A stretch of 64,000 nt of DNA from Escherichia phage vB_EcoM_SA35RD. Under the pieces are notes generated by a model that was not told the origin of the DNA, ran no database searches, and saw only the letters and a program-made list of their open reading frames with translations. Shown here one piece after another: positions 2,070-13,837 of this stretch (position 1 is the stretch's first letter; each line of letters opens with the position of its first letter). The translations under genes and the position numbers were made by a program. The stretch lies in sequence record OL960577.1; one strand, 5' to 3'.

Positions 2070-2528
2070 TTATAGGATAGTAGTGAGCACCTTATATAAT
2101 GATTTGCCCATCACATATTCCCATTGAGAAGGTTTAATTAAAGCGAACGCATCAAATTCAGGAATCTGTCGTCCGTCTGGGAATGTATGATAGGAATTAC
2201 AAGCACTGTTTCTGAATTGCTCGTGCTCTACAGGGATGGTATATAGGAACAGATGAATATTCTTATTGTCTGAGTAATGATGTTCACCTAGGTCTTTCAG
2301 GAAGGCAGGGTCATATTGTGTAAACCCAGTTTCTTCTTCGCATTCGCGAATAGCGGCTTCAATAGGAGATTCACCGGGCTCGACACGTCCTTTAGGAATA
2401 TCCCAGCGATGAGCTAAAGAACCTTTAGGACGAGAACCAGTTACACGCCCCATGAATAATTCTTTATCTTCGGTAAGGAAAATAATACCGGCTGATAGTT
2501 CTTTCACTTTATTTTTCTTACTCATCAT
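2070..2528 (-). CDS. nudE: Nudix hydrolase (NudE/e.1-like)
   Basis: 152 aa; Nudix box GRVEPGESPIEAAIRECEEETG; position immediately upstream of e as in T4. Confidence 0.85.
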   Translation of the reverse strand: MMSKKNKVKELSAGIIFLTEDKELFMGRVTGSRPKGSLAHRWDIPKGRVEPGESPIEAAIRECEEETGFTQYDPAFLKDLGEHHYSDNKNIHLFLYTIPVEHEQFRNSACNSYHTFPDGRQIPEFDAFALIKPSQWEYVMGKSLYKVLTTIL

Positions 2529-2754
2529 CTCGGTCCCATGATTTGGCCATTAATTCGGACATAAATTCTTCAATGCGCGTTTCTTTAGATGGACTTTCAC
2601 TATTAGAGACCGCAAGTTTGTAATCTGCAATAGGACAGAACATATCAAGATCCGTATTAAGGTCGTCTTTGATTTTTTCTTCTGACACATCTTTATCGTA
2701 TGTGTACAGATAACTATCACATGATTCTGATTTAATGTAAATTGCTATACTCAT
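2518..2754 (-). CDS. hypothetical small acidic protein
   Basis: ORF; start chosen at ATG 2754 (MSIAIY), which overlaps the stop of the upstream gene as ATGA. Confidence 0.5.
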   Translation of the reverse strand: MSIAIYIKSESCDSYLYTYDKDVSEEKIKDDLNTDLDMFCPIADYKLAVSNSESPSKETRIEEFMSELMAKSWDRDDE

Positions 2755-3242
2755 CTCAAATTCCTGCATTCAGTAATAAAACATTCAACTTCGTTATTCT
2801 TGGCCTTTATCTTGTCTTTACGTTCCTGTAAACTACTTTTAACAAGATTAATAATGATGCCTACAGTACCTCCACCAATTATACCGCCAATTATACTTAC
2901 GATAGCAGATGCTAATAAGATAGCAATAATATCAACAAAACCGAAAGAACTCACCTTAGTACTAAAAAACCATACCGACGGTACAAATATAATCCATCCT
3001 GTTATCCATTGGCACTTATTGAAAAACTTTTCAAGATCAGCTTGAGTTGTTCGTATTACTTCATCGATAGGTTGATATCCATTAATGTATCTGTTCACGA
3101 TAATACCTGCTGGTTTGTCGATTTTAAATTCTTGGCAAATACGTTTCACTAAGTAGGATGGACATCCTGTCCAATCCACTGAATAGTACGAAATACCTTC
3201 ATTGCCGTCGTCAATATTAGACCAATATGTTTTGTTAATCAT
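2751..3242 (-). CDS. small membrane protein, FIxECR-tail family
   Basis: 163 aa; hydrophobic segments WIIFVPSVWFF and IIAILLASAIVSIIGGIIGGGTVGIII; C-terminus ECFITECRNLR. Confidence 0.6.
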   Translation of the reverse strand: MINKTYWSNIDDGNEGISYYSVDWTGCPSYLVKRICQEFKIDKPAGIIVNRYINGYQPIDEVIRTTQADLEKFFNKCQWITGWIIFVPSVWFFSTKVSSFGFVDIIAILLASAIVSIIGGIIGGGTVGIIINLVKSSLQERKDKIKAKNNEVECFITECRNLR

Positions 3243-3928
3243 TACCAGCCTTCCATAGGGAATTCCAGATAAACTTGGGCATTGACGCGAATTTCATTGG
3301 TAATCTTTTTAACTCGGTCTGTATTACGAGATACACGTCCGAACCAACGCCATCCATTACTAATTGCACGAGAACCAGTGTGCCATGTTTGCCAATCAAA
3401 CTGAAGAAGAGTACGGTCTGGAGCTTCCCATTTCTCTAGTTCGCCTTTTTCGATTTTTTCGAGGACTTCTTTGTGCCACTGGCGATAGATAAGTTCGCCA
3501 TCAGGAATCTGACTGAACTCTGCAGTTCCTGTTGCAAAATGAGTAGGACACACATCAGCGTTAACAAGACCAAGAATATGTTCAGACAAATAGCGAGGAT
3601 TGTCATAGTCAGGTTGTCCTGCAGTAATAAAATGTTGACCAACCGGAATATCCGGGCGTGGTACGTCATCATGGTGATAACCTGGGATAGCAGGATACCA
3701 ACCAGGCATCAGCATGTGGACTCGTGAATCAAATACAACCTGGTCGGTGTTCCAATCATCTGGCAAGTTCATAATGAAAGAGCGAGTAATAGGACCGCCG
3801 TTATTATAAGCAAATTCTAAACTACAGTTGAAGAACATAGGCTCGTTCTTGATTTTATCATTAGAAATACCGCCGGCAAAACCACCTACTGCACGAGCTT
3901 GACTATTAAACACTTTAGAACTATTCAT
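3242..3928 (-). CDS. hypothetical protein, 228 aa
   Basis: Long ORF with SD GAGGAAAA; no confidently recognised domain. Confidence 0.6.
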   Translation of the reverse strand: MNSSKVFNSQARAVGGFAGGISNDKIKNEPMFFNCSLEFAYNNGGPITRSFIMNLPDDWNTDQVVFDSRVHMLMPGWYPAIPGYHHDDVPRPDIPVGQHFITAGQPDYDNPRYLSEHILGLVNADVCPTHFATGTAEFSQIPDGELIYRQWHKEVLEKIEKGELEKWEAPDRTLLQFDWQTWHTGSRAISNGWRWFGRVSRNTDRVKKITNEIRVNAQVYLEFPMEGW

Positions 3929-3929
3929 A

Positions 3930-4235
3930 TTATTTTCCTCGACATTCTTTAATGAAATTTTCTAGATTGGTAGATTCAATAGCTTTTTTACGAGCTTCTG
4001 CGTGTTCTTCTTCGGACAATTTACGTTTATAATTGACCCAGACATTATGGTCGAAACCAGTCGTGGCATATAATAACAATGCTCCAACGAATAGCAAAAA
4101 CGGCGATAAGAATACAAAACCAGGAACACCATCCATATCGTAAGCCTTTTGTAATACTGCAACAGAAAGAGTTGCGTAAAAAGGTGATGCAAGTATTGTT
4201 AAAAGACCAATTCGATTGGTTTCTGTTAATTTCAT
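3930..4235 (-). CDS. small membrane protein, FIxECR-tail family
   Basis: 101 aa; two hydrophobic helices; C-terminus ENFIKECRGK; SD GAGGAG; early promoter at 4267..4296. Confidence 0.6.
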   Translation of the reverse strand: MKLTETNRIGLLTILASPFYATLSVAVLQKAYDMDGVPGFVFLSPFLLFVGALLLYATTGFDHNVWVNYKRKLSEEEHAEARKKAIESTNLENFIKECRGK

Positions 4236-4266: not shown

Positions 4267-4296
4267 ACTATAACATAGTCCTATCAGTTTGTACAC
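4267..4296 (-). promoter_or_regulatory. early promoter cassette with palindrome around the -10 (PeSL-like)
   Basis: -35 GTGTAC, 18 bp, -10 TATAGT; 8-bp inverted repeat ATAGGACT/AGTCCTAT (4257..4264 and 4278..4285). Confidence 0.5.
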
Positions 4297-4497
4297 TTAT
4301 TTTGACATTTCTTCGATGTCACGACGATACCCATCACGAACTTCACGAAGAGCTTCAAGGCCACACATAGGCTCGATACCAGTAATGTGAACTTGATTAA
4401 TCTGATACTCTACATCTTCTAACTGAGCGAAAACATAACGACGTTCTGCTGCACAACCAGGTTTAGCTTTACCGAAACGTTTATTCAAAGTAGTCAT
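4297..4497 (-). CDS. hypothetical small protein
   Basis: Start at ATG 4497 (MTTLNKRFGK) with SD GGAG, downstream of early promoter 4536..4565. Confidence 0.45.
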   Translation of the reverse strand: MTTLNKRFGKAKPGCAAERRYVFAQLEDVEYQINQVHITGIEPMCGLEALREVRDGYRRDIEEMSK

Positions 4498-4535
4498 TTT
4501 TATATCTCCATTCACTCATTTGTTTTGATAGGTCT

Positions 4536-4565
4536 ATAGTATCAACAACTACAGACCTTGTAAAC
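4536..4565 (-). promoter_or_regulatory. early promoter cassette (PeSL-like)
   Basis: -35 GTTTAC, 18 bp, -10 TACTAT; flanking inverted repeat AGGTCT/AGACCT. Confidence 0.5.
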
Positions 4566-4577
4566 TGTTTTGTGAAA

Positions 4578-5534
4578 TTATTTGAAAGGTTTTACCATAT
4601 GAAAGTTTTGTTTGAAACGCTTGACGTAATCGTCGTGTCCTAAGCTTTGGTACATACTTACTACTTTGCTATAATTTTCCCAAGCGAACTCACGGAACCA
4701 TCCTGATGTGATTGATGTACAGACCTTTTCAAGGGCCATCATAAAACTATCACGTGGATGGATTTTAAAGTCGTTAGGAATCTGAGAACGTTCTAATGCT
4801 AGTACACATGATTCTTCATATACACCGGCCAATTTGACCATTTCTGGTAATGATTCGAACTTCTCGCGTGAGGTCATGACTTCAGAACCATCTTTCATGT
4901 AAAATGTATAAGCCGGACGGTCTGTTAGTGCAATAGCTTCGTGAATAGTATCATGGTCATATGTATAGATGTCATCTTTAAAGAACGCACTTTTAGAAGT
5001 GTCAAGAACAGGGTGAGCATAGTTCAAGGTTTCTTTCTGGCGTTTCAGCATAATTTCAGTAAGTTCATCGTTCAGTTTAACACCTTTACCACGAAGATAC
5101 TGAATATGGTTCATAGTCTTTAAAAAGAATGGATTATTTTTCTTGAAACGATGAGACATCTTAATTGCAAGACATATCTCAGGAGTTGCCCAGTAAAACC
5201 CGTTCAAACGGTCTTTAGTCAAATTTTTCTTGGCGTATTTTAAAAGGTCATAAGAAGACGTGAAATCTTCAGGAGTGAGTTCACCGACTAATTCACGGAC
5301 ACTAGTGATTGCCGGAACAATATATGCTTCAAAATGAGTTTCGCGTCCATTATGGAAGCATTTGAAAACTTGGACATCAGGGTTATCTTGGTGAACATAT
5401 ACACCCATCATTTGATTTTTGAATGCATTCCAAGAACCTTGGTCCGCAATAAAGTCCCAATCACTATTTTTAATAGCGCTAGAATCAATAAGACCGTGAT
5501 AGTGAAGTGCACGAGAACCAATAACTAACATCAT
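4578..5534 (-). CDS. hypothetical protein, possible nucleotidyltransferase fold
   Basis: 318 aa; N-terminal LVIGSRALHYHG...DWDF resembles the GS...DxD motif of Pol-beta-type nucleotidyltransferases (ANT-like); fold call is tentative. Confidence 0.65.
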   Translation of the reverse strand: MMLVIGSRALHYHGLIDSSAIKNSDWDFIADQGSWNAFKNQMMGVYVHQDNPDVQVFKCFHNGRETHFEAYIVPAITSVRELVGELTPEDFTSSYDLLKYAKKNLTKDRLNGFYWATPEICLAIKMSHRFKKNNPFFLKTMNHIQYLRGKGVKLNDELTEIMLKRQKETLNYAHPVLDTSKSAFFKDDIYTYDHDTIHEAIALTDRPAYTFYMKDGSEVMTSREKFESLPEMVKLAGVYEESCVLALERSQIPNDFKIHPRDSFMMALEKVCTSITSGWFREFAWENYSKVVSMYQSLGHDDYVKRFKQNFHMVKPFK

Positions 5535-5562
5535 AATATTTTCCTCGGATTAATTCATTAAC

Positions 5563-5802
5563 TTAAATTTCACGACATGCGATATTATATTCATCCCAGA
5601 GGTCATCATGTGAAGCCTCTACCAATGGAACGATTGTACCGTTTATGTCTTCATTATAAGGGCAAATTGTACAGTGCGCATCTTCGAATCGGATGCCTTT
5701 GTGTTCAGATTTTTTATAACGCATATCGAATATCTTTGCAAACTTTTCACGAGTAATGGTTTTACCAACCACTTTGGTTCCGATACTTTCGTAATAAATC
5801 AT
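5563..5802 (-). CDS. hypothetical small protein
   Basis: Start at ATG 5802 (MIYYES), which has SD GGAG; ends ...NIACREI; early promoter at 5831..5860. Confidence 0.5.
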   Translation of the reverse strand: MIYYESIGTKVVGKTITREKFAKIFDMRYKKSEHKGIRFEDAHCTICPYNEDINGTIVPLVEASHDDLWDEYNIACREI

Positions 5803-5830
5803 TGTGGACTCCATTTGTTTTGATAGGACT

Positions 5831-5860
5831 ACTATAACATAGCCCTATCTTGTTGTAAAC
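5831..5860 (-). promoter_or_regulatory. early promoter cassette (PeSL-like)
   Basis: -35 GTTTAC, 18 bp, -10 TATAGT; inverted repeat GATAGGGCT/AGTCCTATC around the -10. Confidence 0.5.
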
Positions 5861-5864
5861 TGTT

Positions 5865-6062
5865 TTAGCAAGAATAACTAGATGATACCCAGCCTTGAAC
5901 AGTGATACTATTGTGGGATAATGAGATCGCGTCCTGGAGATTCAGACCTGCGTTATCTTCAATCCATAATGTAACTTCTTCGCGTTCTTCTGTTGCAATT
6001 TGGAACAGGTTTTCCAGAGCAGCTACTGCCGTACGTACAGCACAATCTAATTCACGAGACAT
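5865..6062 (-). CDS. small protein, GWVSSS..C-tail family
   Basis: 65 aa; C-terminus QGWVSSSYSC; SD AAGGAA. Confidence 0.55.
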   Translation of the reverse strand: MSRELDCAVRTAVAALENLFQIATEEREEVTLWIEDNAGLNLQDAISLSHNSITVQGWVSSSYSC

Positions 6063-6071
6063 ATTGTTTCC

Positions 6072-6344
6072 TTAGCAAGTGTGAGAAGATGCGACCCAAC
6101 CACCAGTTTCGAGGCTCAGGTTGTAGTCGTATTGGTAAACGTCAGCCCATTCAGCATAGCCATTTTTTGTACAACGTTCAAGATCGGCTTTAAGATGTCC
6201 GGGTGAATGATAGGTTCCACCCATACCGTAAGCTGGATACAAGTCGAATGTTGTGTTTTGTTTATCAGCAATTTCTTTGGCAGCCTCAATAGCTGCATAG
6301 ATTTTTGCTACAGCTTCAGCCAGTTCGGTTTGTTCTTTAGACAT
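6072..6344 (-). CDS. small protein, GWVSSS..C-tail family
   Basis: 90 aa; C-terminus GGWVASSHTC; shares KEIAD...YG.GGTYH core with the next paralog. Confidence 0.6.
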   Translation of the reverse strand: MSKEQTELAEAVAKIYAAIEAAKEIADKQNTTFDLYPAYGMGGTYHSPGHLKADLERCTKNGYAEWADVYQYDYNLSLETGGWVASSHTC

Positions 6345-6353
6345 AATGATTCC

Positions 6354-6659
6354 TTAGCACAACGCAGAAGACGAAACCCAAGCACCTTCAGTAATAACGT
6401 AACCATTACCTTCACGCTTAACATCGCCACCATTATTTTCAATTTCATCTTTCATCCACTGGGATACGATTTCACCCTTAGGATAATAAGTACGACCGCT
6501 ACCATAATCACCTACAGAAAATGATACGGCATATTGGTCTGCGATCTTTGTTGCTTCTTCTTCGATACGTTCAGCTTGATTCAGAAGTTTATAAATTGCA
6601 TCTGAAGCGGATTTGGCATTATTAAACTCTGGTACTTTAATTTCAATAATCTTACTCAT
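6354..6659 (-). CDS. small protein, GWVSSS..C-tail family
   Basis: 101 aa; C-terminus GAWVSSSALC; ATG overlaps the upstream stop (ATGA). Confidence 0.6.
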   Translation of the reverse strand: MSKIIEIKVPEFNNAKSASDAIYKLLNQAERIEEEATKIADQYAVSFSVGDYGSGRTYYPKGEIVSQWMKDEIENNGGDVKREGNGYVITEGAWVSSSALC

Positions 6660-7015
6660 TTTCTACATTCCTTAATAAAGTTTTCGATTGTTTCATTTTC
6701 ACGTCTAGCTAGGAGTTCATTATAACTAATCATTTGAGAAGCGTAAACCTTTTTATTTTTCTTGTTATGGTTTATAAAATCGTAGTAAAAATAGACTACA
6801 GTACAAAATGATGCGATGGATGCAAAGGCTTGGGTATACCGTAAGTCCTGCCATTGGTCTGTGAATCCACCAGTGTTCCCTATAAATCCTAACACAACGC
6901 CGTCAATAAGAAATCCAACTAATCCAAAGGCAAATCCCATGCCAATACTCATAATAAAAATTAGAATGTTCTCACCAAGAGAAGGCCATACGGTTAAGAG
7001 TTGAGGCTTTTGCAT
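6656..7015 (-). CDS. small membrane protein, FIxECR-tail family
   Basis: 119 aa; hydrophobic helices; C-terminus IENFIKECRK. Confidence 0.6.
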   Translation of the reverse strand: MQKPQLLTVWPSLGENILIFIMSIGMGFAFGLVGFLIDGVVLGFIGNTGGFTDQWQDLRYTQAFASIASFCTVVYFYYDFINHNKKNKKVYASQMISYNELLARRENETIENFIKECRK

Positions 7016-7389
7016 CTTATTTCCTTAACGAATTCCATAGCTTCTTCATATTCATACTTTTTAATAGCTTCATCATACTGAGCTTGGGCTTTTGCGCACT
7101 GAACTTTCCATTCTCTTAATCGGGCTCTGTGATGACGGCCTTGGTGCCAATATCCCACCCAATTAATAGGCATTAATAAAAACGGTACAATAAGTGGTGC
7201 GACGAACATTAATGAAAATGCTGCATCAGACGATATAACTTCACTAGAATCTAAAACAGCTCCTATAATCATAAAGATTAAAAATGCTAAAGCTAAAATA
7301 GGGCCAAATAGTACTTCATTTGGGATTAATTTACGCTTGTATTCATACGCCCAGGGCTTACTTGGCATGTATAGGGTTGGCTTTGACAT
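6994..7389 (-). CDS. small membrane protein, FIxECR-like tail
   Basis: Start at ATG 7389 (MSKPTLY) directly after the conserved GAATGTAGAGAAT junction motif; two hydrophobic helices; tail MEFVKEIRCK. Confidence 0.55.
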   Translation of the reverse strand: MSKPTLYMPSKPWAYEYKRKLIPNEVLFGPILALAFLIFMIIGAVLDSSEVISSDAAFSLMFVAPLIVPFLLMPINWVGYWHQGRHHRARLREWKVQCAKAQAQYDEAIKKYEYEEAMEFVKEIRCKSLNS

Positions 7390-7954
7390 ATTCTCTACAT
7401 TCCATAATAAATTGCTCAAGGATTAAATTGTTAGTGAAATTAGGACTAACAACCATAGTTTCATAAAGCGCATCAATAGCACTTAAAGCATCAACTCTTT
7501 TAAGCAAAGGCTTGCCTTCATACATAGTTTCAGAATCGACGATTAAAGTGAAGTAGTATTTTTTATTATTGGCCAGAACTTCTGTATCAATATAAAACAT
7601 GTTAGACCTTAAAAGCTTGTCTCTAAAGCCTACGTAATCATCTGAACGTTCACTGATATATTCCCATTCGGTGTTTAAACAACAAACAGACCACGTAGGA
7701 GCAACGAAATCAGTGAATCTAATATCATGGTCTGCAACTAGTTTAGCAATAGCTCCGATATCATGAATCATAATACCTGGGGCTAATAAAGATTTTCGGT
7801 TATTTGCATATTCAGTTGTCTCATAAGAAGACGACCAGTACCATTTACGTCCAGTTGCAACATATCGTAATGAATCAACTAAAGACGTAGGTGGATTTAC
7901 CTTATCTCGGAACTCTTCGAACATTGAGTCAATATCATTATTTTGGTTTCGCAT
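7358..7954 (-). CDS. hypothetical protein with FIxECR motif near C-terminus
   Basis: Start at ATG 7954 with SD AAGGAG; ...EQFIMECREYVKANPIHAK; 3' end overlaps the next gene by 32 nt. Confidence 0.6.
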   Translation of the reverse strand: MRNQNNDIDSMFEEFRDKVNPPTSLVDSLRYVATGRKWYWSSSYETTEYANNRKSLLAPGIMIHDIGAIAKLVADHDIRFTDFVAPTWSVCCLNTEWEYISERSDDYVGFRDKLLRSNMFYIDTEVLANNKKYYFTLIVDSETMYEGKPLLKRVDALSAIDALYETMVVSPNFTNNLILEQFIMECREYVKANPIHAK

Positions 7955-7973
7955 GTTAACTCCTTTATTATCC

Positions 7974-7995
7974 AAAAGGAGGACCGGGGTCCTCC
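7974..7995 (-). terminator. rho-independent terminator
   Basis: GGAGGAC-CGGG-GTCCTCC hairpin followed by TTTT on the minus strand, just after the stop of the 8004..8597 gene. Confidence 0.6.
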
Positions 7996-8003
7996 GTATT
8001 ATT

Positions 8004-8597
8004 TTATTTCAAAGAGTTAATATATTCTTGTACATCAGCAGAAGTGGTTTCGACACCTGCTGGAGTGCCATTGAACGTTTCAACCCGAGTCAGAGTGTCT
8101 TCGATATCAACCTTAGTCAGTGCAGCGATTTCAATTACATCATCGGCCGTAGAGATACCAAGGGCATTAGCTGCTCGAGTTTCACGAATGTATTCGAGTT
8201 TGATTGCCAGATTCTGACGAGCATCATCAAGTTCAACCACCTTACGAGCAATTTCAATTCGCATAGCGGCATACCCGTCAGCTTTTGTATTAAGTTGTTC
8301 GGCAGTTCGACGATACAGAAGACCAAGCTTAGCATGCATGGTAACATCTTGTCCTTCAGCCAGGAGCTTACGAATTTCACGTTCCTTAGAAGCGGCTTGC
8401 TTGTTCTTTTCAATAACAAGTTCGCGAATACGTTTTTCTTCATTAATAGATTTAACAGAAGCCGTTTTTAGTTCTTTGATTTGGGTAATCAACTTATCTG
8501 CAGCTGCGTTATACTGTTCTTCGACAGTCAGATTTTTAGCCATAGCAGTACCCAGTTTAGTGCGAATGAATTCAACAAGTTTCTTCAGTGTGTTCAT
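8004..8597 (-). CDS. coiled-coil protein, PspA/IM30-like (tentative)
   Basis: 197 aa; heptad-rich and Ala/Glu/Lys/Arg-rich; layout resembles PspA as recalled; early promoter at 8639..8668; terminator at 7974..7995. Confidence 0.6.
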
Positions 8598-8638
8598 ATT
8601 ATTACCTTTCAATTGGTGGTTTATTATCCAACGAGAGC

Positions 8639-8668
8639 ATTATACTCTGCTCTCAAGAGTTTGTACAC
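8639..8668 (-). promoter_or_regulatory. early promoter cassette (PeSL-like)
   Basis: -35 GTGTAC, 18 bp, -10 TATAAT; inverted repeat GAGAGC/GCTCTC (8633..8638 and 8649..8654). Confidence 0.55.
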
Positions 8669-8917
8669 TTATTTGTACGAATTAATAATCTCTTCCATTT
8701 TATCCAGAACATGGATATCGATTATACGAGGAAGTGCCGAAAGATTAGAACCGTCGAAAGATTTAAGGTCTTCCAAAATAATATTTTCAATGGCCTTTAA
8801 AGCTTCCGCAGATTCTGATGCAGAATTAAATTCAGGAATTTCTCCAAAAAGACGTAAGAATGAACCAAAGTATTCTGCGGCGATTTCTTTAGCTTGTTCG
8901 ATATCAGACTTAAACAT
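8669..8917 (-). CDS. hypothetical small acidic protein
   Basis: Start at ATG 8917 (MFKSDIEQ), chosen because the promoter -10 at 8946..8951 lies inside the longer ORF. Confidence 0.5.
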   Translation of the reverse strand: MFKSDIEQAKEIAAEYFGSFLRLFGEIPEFNSASESAEALKAIENIILEDLKSFDGSNLSALPRIIDIHVLDKMEEIINSYK

Positions 8918-8945
8918 TTTGTTTTCCTCATTTGTTGGTGGAGTA

Positions 8946-8975
8946 ATCATATCACCATCCTTGGCGTTTGTACAT
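8946..8975 (-). promoter_or_regulatory. early promoter candidate (weaker match)
   Basis: -35 ATGTAC, 18 bp, -10 TATGAT. Confidence 0.35.
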
Positions 8976-9202
8976 TATTTTTTAATCAAGTTGACATAAA
9001 ATTCTGCATCTTCAGGGTGCATGCCTTCGCAGTATTCTTCAACCATGAACTTCTTAACAGCTTCATAAGGACCACTCAGATTAAGCTCAGTTGTCCAGAA
9101 CTTGGAATCTTGGACTGAATCGATATGAACTTCAGGGTGTCGGTTGCGAATAACTTCTTCGGTGTATTCATAATCAACGACATCAATACTAACTTTAGCC
9201 AT
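8975..9202 (-). CDS. hypothetical small protein
   Basis: 75 aa ORF; SD GAGGAAAA; promoter at 9231..9260. Confidence 0.55.
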   Translation of the reverse strand: MAKVSIDVVDYEYTEEVIRNRHPEVHIDSVQDSKFWTTELNLSGPYEAVKKFMVEEYCEGMHPEDAEFYVNLIKK

Positions 9203-9230
9203 TTTATTTTCCTCTTGATTTGATGTGATT

Positions 9231-9260
9231 ACTATAACATAAACTTACTTAGATGTAAAT
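9231..9260 (-). promoter_or_regulatory. early promoter candidate
   Basis: -35 ATTTAC, 18 bp, -10 TATAGT. Confidence 0.4.
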
Positions 9261-9413
9261 TATTTCAACGTCACCTTTAGCTGCTTTATAACCTTCAGCC
9301 CAAGATACAACAGAGTTTTTATCCGAGGATTCAAATTCAGGCATTGGACTTTCACCAATATTCACACAGTATGTTTCTTCATTTTCATCGAACCAAATAA
9401 TTAAAGTAGTCAT
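9249..9413 (-). CDS. hypothetical small protein (54 aa, absent from the ORF track)
   Basis: Own translation MTTLIIWFDENEETYCVNIGESPMPEFESSDKNSVVSWAEGYKAAKGDVEIIYI; SD AGAGGAG; promoter at 9444..9473. Confidence 0.45.
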   Translation of the reverse strand: MTTLIIWFDENEETYCVNIGESPMPEFESSDKNSVVSWAEGYKAAKGDVEIIYI

Positions 9414-9443
9414 TTTGTTTACTCCTCTGTAGTTGATAAGTCT

Positions 9444-9473
9444 ATAGTATCACCATCCTTGGTGCTTGTACAT
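9444..9473 (-). promoter_or_regulatory. early promoter cassette, part of the 47-bp module shared with 45531..45577
   Basis: -35 ATGTAC, 18 bp, -10 TACTAT; block 9407..9453 is identical to 45531..45577. Confidence 0.5.
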
Positions 9474-9480
9474 CATTATT

Positions 9481-9786
9481 TTATTTTTTCCAACTCAACA
9501 ACTTGTAATGTCCTTCATTCGTACGTGGTTTATCCCAAGAAATACTAATATATGATTCGCTGTCAATAGAAGTCGCCGGGTTTTTCTCTACCGTAAGACC
9601 TTCACTTTCCAGCCATTCAATAGTATTTGCGCATAAATCGGAAGAACACCTCATCGGGAACCGGCAAGATTTTTCACCTTTAGATGCTGCATCGTACATC
9701 TTTTCCAAAATACGCTTTTGCACGTTTTTAAAAATAGTTTCAGCAGATTCTTCAGATTTTTTATTCAGTTCAGTGTAAAGACTCAT
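9481..9786 (-). CDS. hypothetical small protein
   Basis: 101 aa; promoter at 9815..9843; several Cys residues. Confidence 0.55.
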   Translation of the reverse strand: MSLYTELNKKSEESAETIFKNVQKRILEKMYDAASKGEKSCRFPMRCSSDLCANTIEWLESEGLTVEKNPATSIDSESYISISWDKPRTNEGHYKLLSWKK

Positions 9787-9814
9787 AACATTTTCCTCTA
9801 TGGTTGATAAGTCT

Positions 9815-9843
9815 ATAGTATCATGTCCTTAGAAGAAGTAAAC
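9815..9843 (-). promoter_or_regulatory. early promoter cassette
   Basis: -35 GTTTAC, 17 bp, -10 TACTAT; downstream TAGACTTATCAAC core shared with 9444 and 45568. Confidence 0.5.
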
Positions 9844-9876
9844 ATCTTTATGAAATATTTTTATGCCCTAGATACC

Positions 9877-9903
9877 AAAAGGCCCCAACCATAAGGAAGG
9901 GGC
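9877..9903 (-). terminator. rho-independent terminator
   Basis: GGCCCC/GGGGC stem followed by TTTT on the minus strand, after the 9910..10374 gene. Confidence 0.55.
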
Positions 9904-9909
9904 ATTCTA

Positions 9910-10374
9910 TTATTTAATTTGTTTAGCAGACCAGATACGGTCTTTAATAAGTTTTTGGATATCTTCAACATACTCAAGGCTATGAGCGTGAGGATTATCT
10001 TTGAAGCTATGTGCTCGTGCCAGTTTCTGGCCTTCTGTTTTGATTACTAAAAGCTCTTTAAGAATTGCTTCATACTTAGAAATAATTCCTTTGGCGATAT
10101 TTTTTTCTTGAGCTGCTTTAGGGTCTGTTTTTGGCGCAGGTGCTTTACCTGTAGCTTTCTGGAACAATTCACCTGATGCAGCTAGGCTTTTAAAAACTCG
10201 GCTAACAGTATTAGCATTAGTAAAACCTTCGGCTTTAAAATCTCTAATAAAACGGAAACGTTCTTCATCAGAGGCGTCTTTGTAAGAATATTTACCTGCT
10301 TGAATTGCTGCAATCGCAGCGGCTTTTACATCTGAACTAGATTGTTCAGTCAAAAATTCAGCGTATGATTTCAT
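9910..10374 (-). CDS. internal-protein-like (CTS-bearing) basic protein, 154 aa
   Basis: Starts MKSYAEFLTE (CTS-like); Lys/Ala-rich; flanked by rho-independent terminators at 9877..9903 and 10419..10447. Confidence 0.6.
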   Translation of the reverse strand: MKSYAEFLTEQSSSDVKAAAIAAIQAGKYSYKDASDEERFRFIRDFKAEGFTNANTVSRVFKSLAASGELFQKATGKAPAPKTDPKAAQEKNIAKGIISKYEAILKELLVIKTEGQKLARAHSFKDNPHAHSLEYVEDIQKLIKDRIWSAKQIK

Positions 10375-10418
10375 GTTGCTTTTCCTAAGTTAATTAACTT
10401 ATCTATTTATTATTATGC

Positions 10419-10447
10419 CAAAAAGCCCCGACCTTTCGGAAGGGGCT
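10419..10447 (-). terminator. rho-independent terminator closing the tRNA/structured-RNA transcription unit
   Basis: AGCCCC-loop-GGGGCT hairpin followed by TTTTT on the minus strand. Confidence 0.6.
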
Positions 10448-10454
10448 AAGCCTT

Positions 10455-10750
10455 GCGGCAACCTTGTCGGGGTTTCCACCTACTAAGGCAAGTGTTTGTA
10501 CGAAACGCCGGGATTCGAACCCGGTTATCAAGTAGTTGACGCTACTCAATATTTTTAAAAGGCCATATCTCGACCATATCCGAACGTTCCGTCAAAAACG
10601 CTACTCGGCTTACGGCAAAGATATTTCCTCGAATCGATAATTCGGTGCGCCGTTTCTGCTGTGATGTAAGGGGATATTAACAAATCGTAAAGATTTATTA
10701 AGACCAGTCCTTACTCAGGGAACATCAGTCCGACGACTTACCGGTAGCGA
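10455..10750 (-). ncRNA. candidate small stable RNA region (T4 rnaC/rnaD-like position), tRNA-like T-arm at 10508..10524
   Basis: About 300 bp without a credible ORF between the 10760 gene and the terminator at 10419..10447; contains CCGGG-TTCGAAT-CCCGG plus a 7-bp acceptor-like strand, but I could not complete a cloverleaf. Confidence 0.3.
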
Positions 10751-10759
10751 CCCGGCTTC

Positions 10760-11104
10760 TTATTTTGGCATATCATCAATTTGCTCTCGACGCCGACGCC
10801 ATAGATTAATCGCTTCATTAACACATTCGGCGTTTGGTATATGACGGCAATAATATAATGATTCGCGTTTCTGGAACCGATGTTGCAATGGAATTTCGTT
10901 TAAAAGGTCTTTACGGTCAAAGTATTCAAAACTAGTTAACCCAGAACGATTTTTAATGAACTTCCAATGTCCAAATTCATTTTGAACATAGATGTAATCG
11001 GCATGCTGATACAGCAAATTAATCAATCGATGAGAAATAACTGTATCATATTCGTTAAAATAAAACGTTAAATCATGAACTACCAGATAAATATTGCCTT
11101 TCAT
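10760..11104 (-). CDS. hypothetical protein between the tRNAs and the structured-RNA region
   Basis: Start at ATG 11104 (MKGNIYLVVHDL) with SD GAGGAAAA; the longer 11152 start would overlap tRNA-Arg. Confidence 0.45.
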   Translation of the reverse strand: MKGNIYLVVHDLTFYFNEYDTVISHRLINLLYQHADYIYVQNEFGHWKFIKNRSGLTSFEYFDRKDLLNEIPLQHRFQKRESLYYCRHIPNAECVNEAINLWRRRREQIDDMPK

Positions 11105-11122
11105 ATTTTCCTCACTTGAAGT

Positions 11123-11199
<77 letters not shown>

Positions 11200-11205
11200 A
11201 ATATA

Positions 11206-11279
11206 TGACCCAGACCAGATTCGAACTGGTAACCTTTCCCTTATGAGGGGACTGCTGCTAACCATTGAGCTACAGGGCC
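11206..11279 (-). tRNA. tRNA with anticodon CAU (Ile2 or Met type), no encoded CCA
   Basis: Manual fold: acceptor GGCCCTG/CTGGGTC (one U-U mismatch), anticodon loop CTCATAA, T-arm ACCAG-TTCGAAT-CTGGT; D-stem only 3 bp, so slightly irregular. Confidence 0.6.
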
Positions 11280-11341
11280 TAAATAACTTTCTATTATGAA
11301 AGGCACTTTAGAGCACCTTTGGTAATAGAGGGTATGAATTA

Positions 11342-11366
11342 ATAATATCACATTATTCTTAAAGCA
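11342..11366 (-). promoter_or_regulatory. candidate MotA-dependent middle promoter upstream of the tRNA genes
   Basis: Minus-strand MotA box TGCTTTA (11360..11366), 12 bp, -10 TATTAT. Confidence 0.35.
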
Positions 11367-11874
11367 AATCAATCATTTTAACAGTCGGCAAAACGATTTC
11401 TTCTTCAATATAAGCGAATTCAACACGTTCAACTACACGCAAGAAATCATAGTCGTAGTATTCAGAAGCATAGCCAAGAATATCAATAAGGCCTTTGGAT
11501 ACCTCATCACCTTTCACAAAGAACAGGTCGAATACACGGGCTTCGTCTTCTTCAGATTTATCGCCAAGGTCAACTTCAATACCAAAGACCTTTTTAATGA
11601 ATTCCGGCTGGAGCTGGTCAGAGAACAGTCCTTCAACCAGATATTCGTAGATAATAAGCGAGCAACGACCGAATGGCGTATTACCACAGTAACGTTCGGC
11701 TTTAGTGCTGGAATGACGACTCTTAAATTTCTTCAAGAGATATTTAAACTGTTGGAGCTCATGCTCTTCTACACCAAATAATGTTTTGGTTTTATAGTTG
11801 TCACCGTCATTTTCCCAAGTAGTGACATCAATTACGTAACCCTTAGGAATTGTACTGCCTAAACAAATATTCAT
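11359..11874 (-). CDS. hypothetical protein, 171 aa
   Basis: ORF upstream of the tRNA pair; acidic; no recognised motif. Confidence 0.6.
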   Translation of the reverse strand: MNICLGSTIPKGYVIDVTTWENDGDNYKTKTLFGVEEHELQQFKYLLKKFKSRHSSTKAERYCGNTPFGRCSLIIYEYLVEGLFSDQLQPEFIKKVFGIEVDLGDKSEEDEARVFDLFFVKGDEVSKGLIDILGYASEYYDYDFLRVVERVEFAYIEEEIVLPTVKMIDLL

Positions 11875-11878
11875 TTAC

Positions 11879-12169
11879 TCACCTTACCATATTAATGTAA
11901 TTATATTCAATGCAACGCAATTTCAAAGGATTCTTGAAAATATCATATTCAAGAGGGCCTTTTTCTGTTTCAATAAAGAAATCAAAGTTAACTGTGTTAA
12001 ATTTATCATCTTCACATAGTAATTTAACCTGTGAAGATGAACGGTCGATATAAACCTTTTCAACCTCAAAGTTAGTCAGAATACCGTAGTCATCGACTAG
12101 TGCTTTAGCTGCACGTTGATCGCTTTCATATCCATTCTCAATGGACGATACTTTAGCATAAAGAATCAT
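11879..12169 (-). CDS. hypothetical protein, 96 aa
   Basis: ORF tightly packed with neighbours. Confidence 0.55.
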   Translation of the reverse strand: MILYAKVSSIENGYESDQRAAKALVDDYGILTNFEVEKVYIDRSSSQVKLLCEDDKFNTVNFDFFIETEKGPLEYDIFKNPLKLRCIEYNYINMVR

Positions 12170-12528
12170 GAATGTTCCACCACTTCAAAAGTATGTGCAC
12201 TGACAATCTGGTACCAGTCAAAATTTTCTTCAGCATTTTTGTAGATTTCACGAAGAGCTTCAACAGTTTTTCCTGTAGCAACAAGGTCGTCAATACCACC
12301 AAGAGGATAACAGTCATAACCAGCAAACAGAAGGAAATTAATAGTTTCTGTAGGTTCTTGATGCAGTGTACCATTGTCATCGACTACTTCAAAGAACATA
12401 TAACCAGGCGATTTAGATTTAATCCAAGCCCATGCTTGAGCTGCTGAATCAAATGGTTTGCGTATCAAACGACAATCAGGATCTTTAGAAGGATTTGCTT
12501 CAAAATCCGCATATACGTGATATTTCAT
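12166..12528 (-). CDS. hypothetical protein, 120 aa
   Basis: Start at ATG 12528 (MKYHVYADFE), abutting the upstream stop. Confidence 0.5.
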   Translation of the reverse strand: MKYHVYADFEANPSKDPDCRLIRKPFDSAAQAWAWIKSKSPGYMFFEVVDDNGTLHQEPTETINFLLFAGYDCYPLGGIDDLVATGKTVEALREIYKNAEENFDWYQIVSAHTFEVVEHS

Positions 12529-12529
12529 T

Positions 12530-12736
12530 TTACTCACCTTTTGCAATTTTATCCATAACAATAGCGATTAAACCGATTAGAAATGCTACTACCAATGAGA
12601 TAGAATTTTCGGTTGTTGTCAGTAGTCCGCAAATGAATCCTACAAACATCGAAAAACTAAAAGCCATTGAAGCAATTACTACAGCAACATTACGAATCAG
12701 TTCAGCGCGTTTCATTTTATTTCTCCATTTACTCAT
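12530..12736 (-). CDS. small membrane protein, 68 aa
   Basis: Basic N-terminus then VAVVIASMAFSFSMFVGFICGLL and LVVAFLIGLIAIVM helices; promoter at 12754..12783. Confidence 0.55.
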   Translation of the reverse strand: MSKWRNKMKRAELIRNVAVVIASMAFSFSMFVGFICGLLTTTENSISLVVAFLIGLIAIVMDKIAKGE

Positions 12737-12753
12737 TTTGTTTTGATAGGACT

Positions 12754-12783
12754 ACTATAACATAGTCCTATCGTGTTGTAAAC
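12754..12783 (-). promoter_or_regulatory. early promoter cassette (PeSL-like)
   Basis: -35 GTTTAC, 18 bp, -10 TATAGT; inverted repeat GATAGGACT/AGTCCTATC (12745..12753 and 12764..12772). Confidence 0.5.
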
Positions 12784-12786
12784 TAC

Positions 12787-13074
12787 TTACAGAAGAGTTT
12801 TTGCAATAATTTTAAGCTGAGCTACAGAAATGTGCTTAGTTTTAAACAGTGCAGTCTCTTCAGCCGGAGAGATAACAATAGTAGCGCCATCTTTCTTAGC
12901 AGACCATCCATCCCCTAAGTAAACAGTACCTTTTACTTCTTCGCCGTCAACCAGACTAATCATTGGTTTACCCTCACGTCCTTTATTTGCTTTAATAACT
13001 TCGGAAGTAAGGGTTGCTTCGGTTAGAGTAGAAACGTTAGCATCAGGTGATATAAATTCTTTATAGGTTTTCAT
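12787..13074 (-). CDS. ipI: internal protein I-like (CTS-bearing), 95 aa
   Basis: Starts MKTYKEFIS; sits immediately downstream of 57B as ipI does in T4; promoter at 13109..13138. Confidence 0.6.
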   Translation of the reverse strand: MKTYKEFISPDANVSTLTEATLTSEVIKANKGREGKPMISLVDGEEVKGTVYLGDGWSAKKDGATIVISPAEETALFKTKHISVAQLKIIAKTLL

Positions 13075-13108
13075 TTTATTTCCTTGAGGTCGTTTATTTG
13101 ATAGGATG

Positions 13109-13138
13109 ATAGTAACACGTCATCATCCTTATGTAAAC
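13109..13138 (-). promoter_or_regulatory. early promoter cassette (PeSL-like) upstream of the ipI-like gene
   Basis: -35 GTTTAC, 18 bp, -10 TACTAT; inverted repeat GGATGAT/ATCATCC. Confidence 0.5.
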
Positions 13139-13151
13139 TGTTTTGTGAAAA

Positions 13152-13837
<686 letters not shown>

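Follow-up and report, generated by a model that had tools for sequence, protein, structure and literature searches.

The 64,000-nucleotide window analyzed here, meaning the whole stretch of DNA under study (Escherichia phage vB_EcoM_SA35RD, record OL960577.1), is Mosigvirus (RB69-like) genome sequence of the Tevenvirinae. In its accessory region, upstream of nudE, e and denV, lies a gene for a protein of 228 amino acids (aa) that most probably is an enzyme of the Fe(II)/2-oxoglutarate (2OG)-dependent dioxygenase superfamily. The gene occupies 3242..3928 on the minus strand as an ATG-to-TAA open reading frame (ORF) of 228 codons. The initial annotation had correctly placed a hypothetical protein of this length here with the strand unstated, and on the plus strand over the same interval the frame that begins at 3242 is interrupted by stop codons. 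At the 38% G+C of the window, only about 0.02 open frames this long would be expected by chance across six frames. The claim that this is the largest unrecognized ORF after that of a 318-aa neighbor holds for the accessory region between 1 and 13 kb, which is the part that was annotated; the window as a whole has 37 ORFs of at least 200 aa, mostly in the 17-63 kb region. The protein is 100% identical in Escherichia phages FL31 and 55 and 97.8% identical in HX01, and it is predicted to be a soluble, stand-alone enzyme of approximately 26 kDa.

Structure prediction places the protein in a defined fold class. AlphaFold2 modeling from 116 diverse homologs reached a mean predicted local distance difference test (pLDDT) score of 95.3 and a predicted template modeling (pTM) score of 0.91, and modeling from 44 close homologs reached 88.6 and 0.87. 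The core of the pLDDT 95.3 model is formed by eight strands (residues 64-73, ~76-85, 116-122, 129-138, 165-168, 173-178, 182-185 and 192-201). When the models were compared with the PDB using Foldseek, 49 of the best 50 matches were Fe(II)/2OG dioxygenases of the PhyH-like type, with similar results for both models and with probabilities of the dioxygenase matches mostly at 0.95-1.0. These matches included HygX, ColD, proline hydroxylase H11, EvdO2, HalB/HalD, GriE, KanJ, SnoK, SptF, SadA, EctD and MysH; a single cupin-like non-oxygenase, YjgK, was also found among the Foldseek matches. The initial annotation had guessed at an Fe(II)/2OG oxygenase from short peptide patterns and had proposed a search for a jelly-roll fold as a check. 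Both AlphaFold2 and Foldseek recover this double-stranded beta-helix, the fold of the superfamily, and together with the residue conservation described below they bear the guess out.

Conservation was counted in an alignment of 116 homologs with 31-54% identity to the query, in which the HxD...H...R set of the superfamily is kept in 113 to 116 sequences. The three peptides originally quoted are all present in the protein: PGYHHDDVPRP (residues 82-92), CPTHFATG (127-134) and GSRAISNGWRW (185-195). The first contains the HxD part of a predicted 2-His-1-carboxylate iron site, encoded by the codons for H85-H86-D87 (3668..3676, minus strand) and following strand 64-73 in the model. H85 is found in all 116 sequences and D87 in 113, the remainder having one Gly, one Glu and one Lys. 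Half of what had been described as an H-H-D-D cluster is therefore conserved at these two positions, and the other half is not, with His at position 86 in 58/116 and Asp at position 88 in 88/116. The predicted distal iron-binding residue is H183 of the sequence WHTGS (codon 3380..3382, minus strand; 115/116), at the start of strand 182-185, and not H130 of CPTHFATG, which is replaced by Glu in 77/116 and was rejected as a ligand. H99 was likewise discarded, as it falls within an insertion present in only 2/116 aligned sequences.

The proposal of a distal basic residue within GSRAISNGWRW proved right for R194 and wrong for R187, where Arg occurs in only 7/116. R194 (codon 3347..3349, minus strand) is invariant, lies in strand 192-201 exactly 11 residues past H183, and is the predicted binder of the 2OG C5 carboxylate. 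The same His-to-Arg spacing is known from PhyH (H264 and R275). It is also that of the Fe(II)/2OG lysine halogenase BesD (6nie), the sole PDB match of the family profile and a non-significant one (E = 1.1), in which the His of an 'LHR' sequence aligns with H183; the gapless HMMER alignment sets R194 one column beyond the Arg of BesD. On the same strand as R194 and in an R-x3-R arrangement with it, R198 (codon 3335..3337, minus strand; 115/116) could contact an anionic substrate or 2OG, and T129 of CPTHFATG (codon 3542..3544, minus strand; 106/116), at the start of strand 129-138, is a possible second 2OG contact. Judged on the model, the positions of H85/D87, H183 and R194 would fit strands II, VII and VIII of the double-stranded beta-helix. 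The family also has its own signature, M-L-M-P-G-W-Y-P-[AC]-I-P-G-[WY]-H-x-D, along with further near-invariant polar residues (E29, D67, R91, Q105, H117, R198, N211, R214 and Y220) and an invariant Gly-Trp near the C-terminus, which presumably shape the substrate site or an interface.

The family is large and widely distributed. A tblastn search recovered 471 phage records that carry the gene, 456 of them covering at least 80% of the query, with hosts that include Escherichia, Aeromonas, Klebsiella, Mycobacterium, Gordonia and Bacillus, and an exhaustive search gave 626 clusters at 50% identity (E up to 1e-3). The protein matches PHROG 1843 at E = 1.3e-95, a family labeled 'unknown function', and a literature search for this family found nothing. 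Even the phage G protein gp274, at ~30% identity, keeps PGWHVDG and the His...(+11)Arg pair. Two independent automatic labels agree with the reading as an Fe(II)/2OG oxygenase of the hydroxylase type: '2OG-Fe(II) oxygenase' on a Citrobacter phage Ursula protein, which a structure-based pipeline of the Phold kind (PMC12774648) could plausibly have assigned, and 'Phytanoyl-CoA dioxygenase family protein', one UniRef name within the family. Homologs of greater length gave no informative fusion partner, being either the domain duplicated in tandem or the domain with unannotated extensions. In the tandem fusions P0137, P0185 and P0228, PGWHxDD and the His...Arg pair persist in the N-terminal copy; HxD is gone from the C-terminal copy, in which the C-terminal ...GW (GF in P0228) survives. 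This arrangement suggests that the normal protein is dimeric, with a second subunit that can become non-catalytic.

As a separate observation on family labels, 8/116 members weakly match phrog_274, labeled 'DNA endonuclease V' (best E = 8.9e-5), and a protein with the same label, A0A127KLI7 of Cyanophage S-RIM50 in BFVD, matches the model at a Foldseek probability of 1.0. The genuine T4 DenV family is PHROG 1183, and phrog_274 may be a 2OG-oxygenase-like family under a wrong label.

Several results count against the assignment to the dioxygenase superfamily. The query has no Pfam match at E up to 1 and no NCBIfam match, and across the 116 homologs PF05721 (PhyH) was touched only once, at E = 0.068. 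Searches of PDB sequences with phmmer, with the family profile and with three divergent members returned no significant match. The Foldseek matches are themselves remote, with E ~1e-3, template modeling (TM) scores of 0.3-0.45, root-mean-square deviations (RMSD) of 6-13 A and identities of 8-19%; at such TM and RMSD values only the core aligns. Both models nevertheless give one and the same remote answer, so that the core assignment is consistent and the family represents a very divergent branch. A search seeded with the BesD fragment yielded four short fragments only (PF23169), too few for a profile. Overall, the enzyme class is well supported. The protein adds a new and divergent member to a known superfamily, and its own family has no name in any curated database.

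Within the superfamily, the closest resemblance is to the PhyH-like small-molecule dioxygenases (PhyH/PAHX, EctD, SadA and others), which share the predicted core and the HxD...H triad, consist of a single domain of ~230-280 aa and are the best and almost the sole structural matches; BesD has the Arg at the same distance of 11 residues from the distal His. The PHROG 1843 family differs from this branch in its lack of a Pfam match, its own signature, its near-invariant R198 and its invariant C-terminal Gly-Trp, and in being mostly phage- or prophage-borne and outside biosynthetic clusters. Membership in PF05721 itself was rejected, as no hidden Markov model match rose above the gathering score and the likeness is structural only. 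A halogenase of the BesD/HalB type, which has HxG/A, was rejected on the Asp at position 87 in 113/116; because this ligand is retained, the enzyme is taken to be of the hydroxylase type. AlkB has a longer His-to-Arg spacing followed by an R-x5-R motif. An AlkB-type enzyme was set aside here on the His-x10-Arg-x3-Arg spacing, the lack of a Pfam 2OG-FeII_Oxy_2 match and the absence of AlkB from the Foldseek best 50. The phage TET/JBP enzymes (5mYOX) are likewise phage-encoded Fe(II)/2OG dioxygenases, but they belong to another structural branch that is absent from the Pfam results and the best Foldseek matches. They are linked to DNA methyltransferases, glycosyltransferases and hypermodified DNA, whereas the PHROG 1843 family has no constant methyltransferase or glycosyltransferase neighbor and spans phages whose DNA chemistry presumably differs; membership in this group was rejected too. 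Finally, T4-like cyanomyoviruses carry '2OG-Fe(II) oxygenase superfamily' genes that are also accessory, with remote matches in S-CAM7, S-RIM50 and P-SSM5, but these match the model only at E of at least 1e-2 and TM ~0.3 and belong to other PHROGs.

Chemistry typical of the superfamily can be proposed for the enzyme. H85, D87 and H183 would hold Fe(II) on one face of the double-stranded beta-helix, and 2OG would chelate the iron, with its C5 carboxylate anchored by R194 and probably helped by T129. O2 would then decarboxylate 2OG to succinate and CO2, giving an Fe(IV)=O species that would hydroxylate or otherwise oxidize a C-H bond of the substrate. The best structural neighbors mostly act on free amino acids or sugars, and a small polar metabolite is therefore the preferred substrate class. 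More specifically, we would guess at a polar or anionic small molecule from the metabolism of the infected cell, amino-acid-like or derived from a nucleotide or ADP-ribose, which would be modified for host takeover or counter-defense.

The gene sits in a closely packed series on the minus strand, in the order DUF7277/DUF7275 gene (318 aa), 72 aa, 101 aa, the 228-aa gene, a 163-aa membrane protein, 83 aa, a NudE-like Nudix gene, lysozyme e, two small ORFs and denV. Its ATG begins 1 nt past the stop codon of the upstream gene, and its own stop codon overlaps the start of the next gene in the sequence TAATG (3244-3240), so that it is translationally coupled within a minus-strand operon. A GAGGA Shine-Dalgarno sequence (3936..3940, minus strand), read from the letters, precedes the ATG by 8-12 nt and falls within the 3' end of the preceding gene. 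A consensus scan placed a sigma-70-like site (TGTACA, a 17-nt spacer, and TG before TATAGT) at 4267..4295 on the minus strand, in the nearest upstream intergenic region, as a candidate early promoter, and further intergenic sites upstream at 4564-4536 and 5859-5831. No T4 late or MotA-box motif was found between 1500 and 8000. The presence of sigma-70-like sites alone fits early expression without proving it, and transcription from such promoters would probably precede replication.

The denV-e-nudE backbone is common to T4 and the window, and a scan of the syntenic T4 region, limited to that region, found no homolog of the 228-aa gene. The NudE-like NUDIX hydrolase, considered here as context only, lies three genes downstream (2070..2528, minus strand; Pfam NUDIX 1.9e-16, with a Nudix box); in its database record, T4 nudE has ADP-ribose, NADH, FAD and ApnA as annotated substrates. 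The 318-aa neighbor (4578-5534, minus strand) carries DUF7277 and DUF7275 and belongs to PHROG 2141, of unknown function. In Citrobacter phage Ursula it directly adjoins the oxygenase gene, but the DUF7277 + DUF7275 protein is not among the neighbor clusters common to more than one family lineage. PADLOC models matched neither the 228-aa protein nor any of five neighbors.

Two sets of small ORFs were noted in the same region. Five minus-strand ORFs (2751-3242, 3930-4235, 6656-7015, 6994-7419 and 7358-7975), of which several have long hydrophobic stretches and two directly flank the 228-aa gene, share a C-terminal motif F-[IV]-x-E-[CI]-R located 1-11 residues before the stop (as in NFIKECRGK, NFIKECRK and FITECRNLR); they may be a paralogous family, or may share a 3' cassette that carries the ribosome-binding site of the next gene. 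Three tandem minus-strand ORFs of 65, 90 and 101 aa (5865-6062, 6072-6344 and 6354-6659) end in G-x-W-V-[SA]-S-S-x-x-C and look like a local paralog array. Approximately 7 kb upstream of the 228-aa gene, tRNA-Arg(tct) and tRNA-Met(cat) lie at 11123-11279 on the minus strand, a general layout as in the e.x-tRNA region of T4.

To survey the wider context, ORFs were called in 110 loci (genomes and viral contigs), in which 92 family genes fall into 26 lineages at 60% identity. Most members reside in phages or prophage-like regions rather than in biosynthetic clusters, and the family lacks a constant neighbor across lineages. Homologs 71-73% identical to the window protein occur in unlike types of phage with no common neighbor: one in a lambdoid-type early region with a cI-like repressor, AntA, ERF, RusA and YopX, and others next to primase-helicases, in RecT/SSB/resolvase early regions, and in a prophage carried on a 611-kb contig. 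These settings mark the gene as an accessory module of early regions that is autonomous and spreads horizontally. It passes between unrelated phages by itself and so needs no partner gene dedicated to it. The G+C content of the window copy, 42.9% against 38.0% for the window, fits this mobile character. In two loci of the RecT/SSB type, an Acb2/Tad1-hairpin-type sponge gene was observed four genes from the family gene (L196:10101-10439 and L197:8479-8817), that is, in 2 of the three RecT/SSB/resolvase regions shown.

Domains of nicotinamide adenine dinucleotide (NAD) and ADP-ribose metabolism form the most recurrent Pfam theme among 140 neighbors, and the RNA-repair genes RtcB and RNA ligase also recur. 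An NAD-salvage gene, NamPT or NAPRT, lies within five genes of the family gene in 5/26 lineages, three of which also have NMNAT(-Nudix) genes nearby; NARP2, by comparison, is present in ~1.1% of phage genomes (bioRxiv 10.1101/2024.02.11.579819). The order is NADAR, NamPT and family gene in L105; family gene, ADP-ribosylglycohydrolase and a divergent NamPT-like gene in L030; and NMNAT-Nudix, one gene, NamPT and family gene in L084. L083 has NMNAT-Nudix and NamPT within five genes, and Bacillus phage G has Nudix, family gene, isochorismatase, one gene and NAPRT, followed by KptA and NMNAT. The L030 locus (4311-13268 of a contig binned as a Methanosarcinales metagenome-assembled genome) is a tight same-strand cluster in which a protein kinase, two unknown genes and a pyruvate-kinase-barrel-like protein precede the family gene, and an FAD oxidoreductase (DAO) and a further unknown gene follow the NamPT-like gene; its makeup resembles a metabolic or conflict operon rather than a typical phage module.

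The recurrence of these genes raises the question of whether the enzyme could be a dedicated step of phage NAD+ reconstitution or an ADP-ribose pathway, working with NamPT, NMNAT-Nudix, NADAR or ADP-ribosylglycohydrolase. The five loci just described and the NudE-like Nudix gene of the window speak for such a role, which we nonetheless regard as distinctly unlikely. In the reverse test, the family gene was found within 8 kb in only 1/80 NamPT viral loci, and that one was the starting contig; the window has no NamPT, and close homologs reside in temperate phages with no NAD genes nearby. Accessory genes moreover cluster in islands, which inflates chance adjacency. The published NARP1, NARP2 and NARP3 pathways resemble the family's setting in the NAD-salvage phosphoribosyltransferase found nearby in the five lineages, but they need and contain no oxygenase, and the survey of viral NAD-ADP-ribose systems by Iyer et al. 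has none of the oxygenase-related terms looked for in it. The regular co-occurrence with Nampt and Nmnat that marks a NARP2-type operon was not seen, and membership in a NARP pathway was rejected as a general explanation on the result of the reverse test. Because that test failed, the NAD/ADP-ribose association is a lead, not a finding, and we hold it to be rather unlikely. Another rather unlikely alternative is that an enzyme of the same class acts on a macromolecule, either as a protein hydroxylase of a host translation or transcription factor or as an AlkB-like or TET/JBP-like nucleic-acid oxidase or repair enzyme. Genes for DNA and RNA transactions lie near the family gene in many phages (denV in the window; ERF, RusA, RecT, SSB and DNA methyltransferase in temperate phages; RtcB, RNA ligase and KptA in actinophages and phage G), some members weakly match the 'DNA endonuclease V' family noted above, and the only characterized phage Fe(II)/2OG dioxygenases found in the literature act on DNA (PMC8256090, PMC13229309). 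Early regions, however, hold DNA-transaction genes by default, which makes proximity weak evidence, and no AlkB, TET/JBP or JmjC structure is among the Foldseek best 50. The His-to-Arg spacing of 11 is that of BesD and is longer in AlkB. Additionally, proteins at least 71% identical occur in RB69-like phages, whose DNA presumably contains hydroxymethylcytosine, and in lambdoid phages; the same protein in phages of presumably unlike DNA argues against a role in hypermodifying phage DNA.

A further possibility, which we consider very unlikely, is that the fold is retained and 2OG turnover is not, the protein being a metal-dependent cupin with other chemistry or a sponge-like, ligand-binding pseudoenzyme. 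The TM scores below 0.5 to solved enzymes, the lack of a Pfam match, the YjgK match and the HxD-less C-terminal copies of the tandem fusions, which indicate that the scaffold tolerates a non-catalytic role, are all in keeping with it. Yet all the catalytic residues, the Arg at +11 among them, are essentially invariant in 116 diverse sequences, which would be unexpected for a binder, and the N-terminal copy of the tandem fusions always keeps the motif. The idea of a structural jelly-roll protein of the virion, or of no real gene at all, is effectively refuted: jelly-rolls are common in capsids and picornavirus capsid entries do appear far down the viral Foldseek list, but only at probabilities of 0.06-0.3 and TM below 0.2, while the gene lies among early accessory genes outside the structural block, its polar His/Asp/Arg set is conserved, and the ORF is kept throughout the 471 phage records.

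With a dioxygenase acting on a small polar metabolite as the preferred reading, one possible hypothesis for the role of the family is counter-defense. The enzyme could inactivate by oxidation an immune molecule derived from NAD+ or ADP-ribose, for example a Thoeris-type ADP-ribose-derived signal, or could hydroxylate the carbon that adjoins the linkage of an ADP-ribosyl or similar adduct and so remove it, in the way AlkB strips alkyl groups. We hold this specific proposal to be quite improbable as it stands. It would account for the autonomy of the gene, its position in early regions and its horizontal spread among unrelated phages, as well as for the occasional presence of NamPT, NMNAT-Nudix, NADAR, ADP-ribosylglycohydrolase and Acb2/Tad1-type neighbors.

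The PHROG 1843 family thus differs from the characterized TET/JBP-type dioxygenases of phages and is far more divergent. The 471 deposited phage genomes that carry it infect Proteobacteria, Actinobacteria and Firmicutes, and the gene has kept at least 70% identity in its passage between temperate phages and lytic ones of the T4-like kind. For a single gene that travels on its own, conservation of this order suggests that the substrate is shared by many infected cells and that there is a selective benefit. The family merits a profile model of its own, and its members should be annotated as 'Fe(II)/2OG dioxygenase, substrate unknown' instead of 'hypothetical protein'. If the weak link to NAD and ADP-ribose genes is true, the family would add oxidative chemistry to the known counter-defense strategies of phages.

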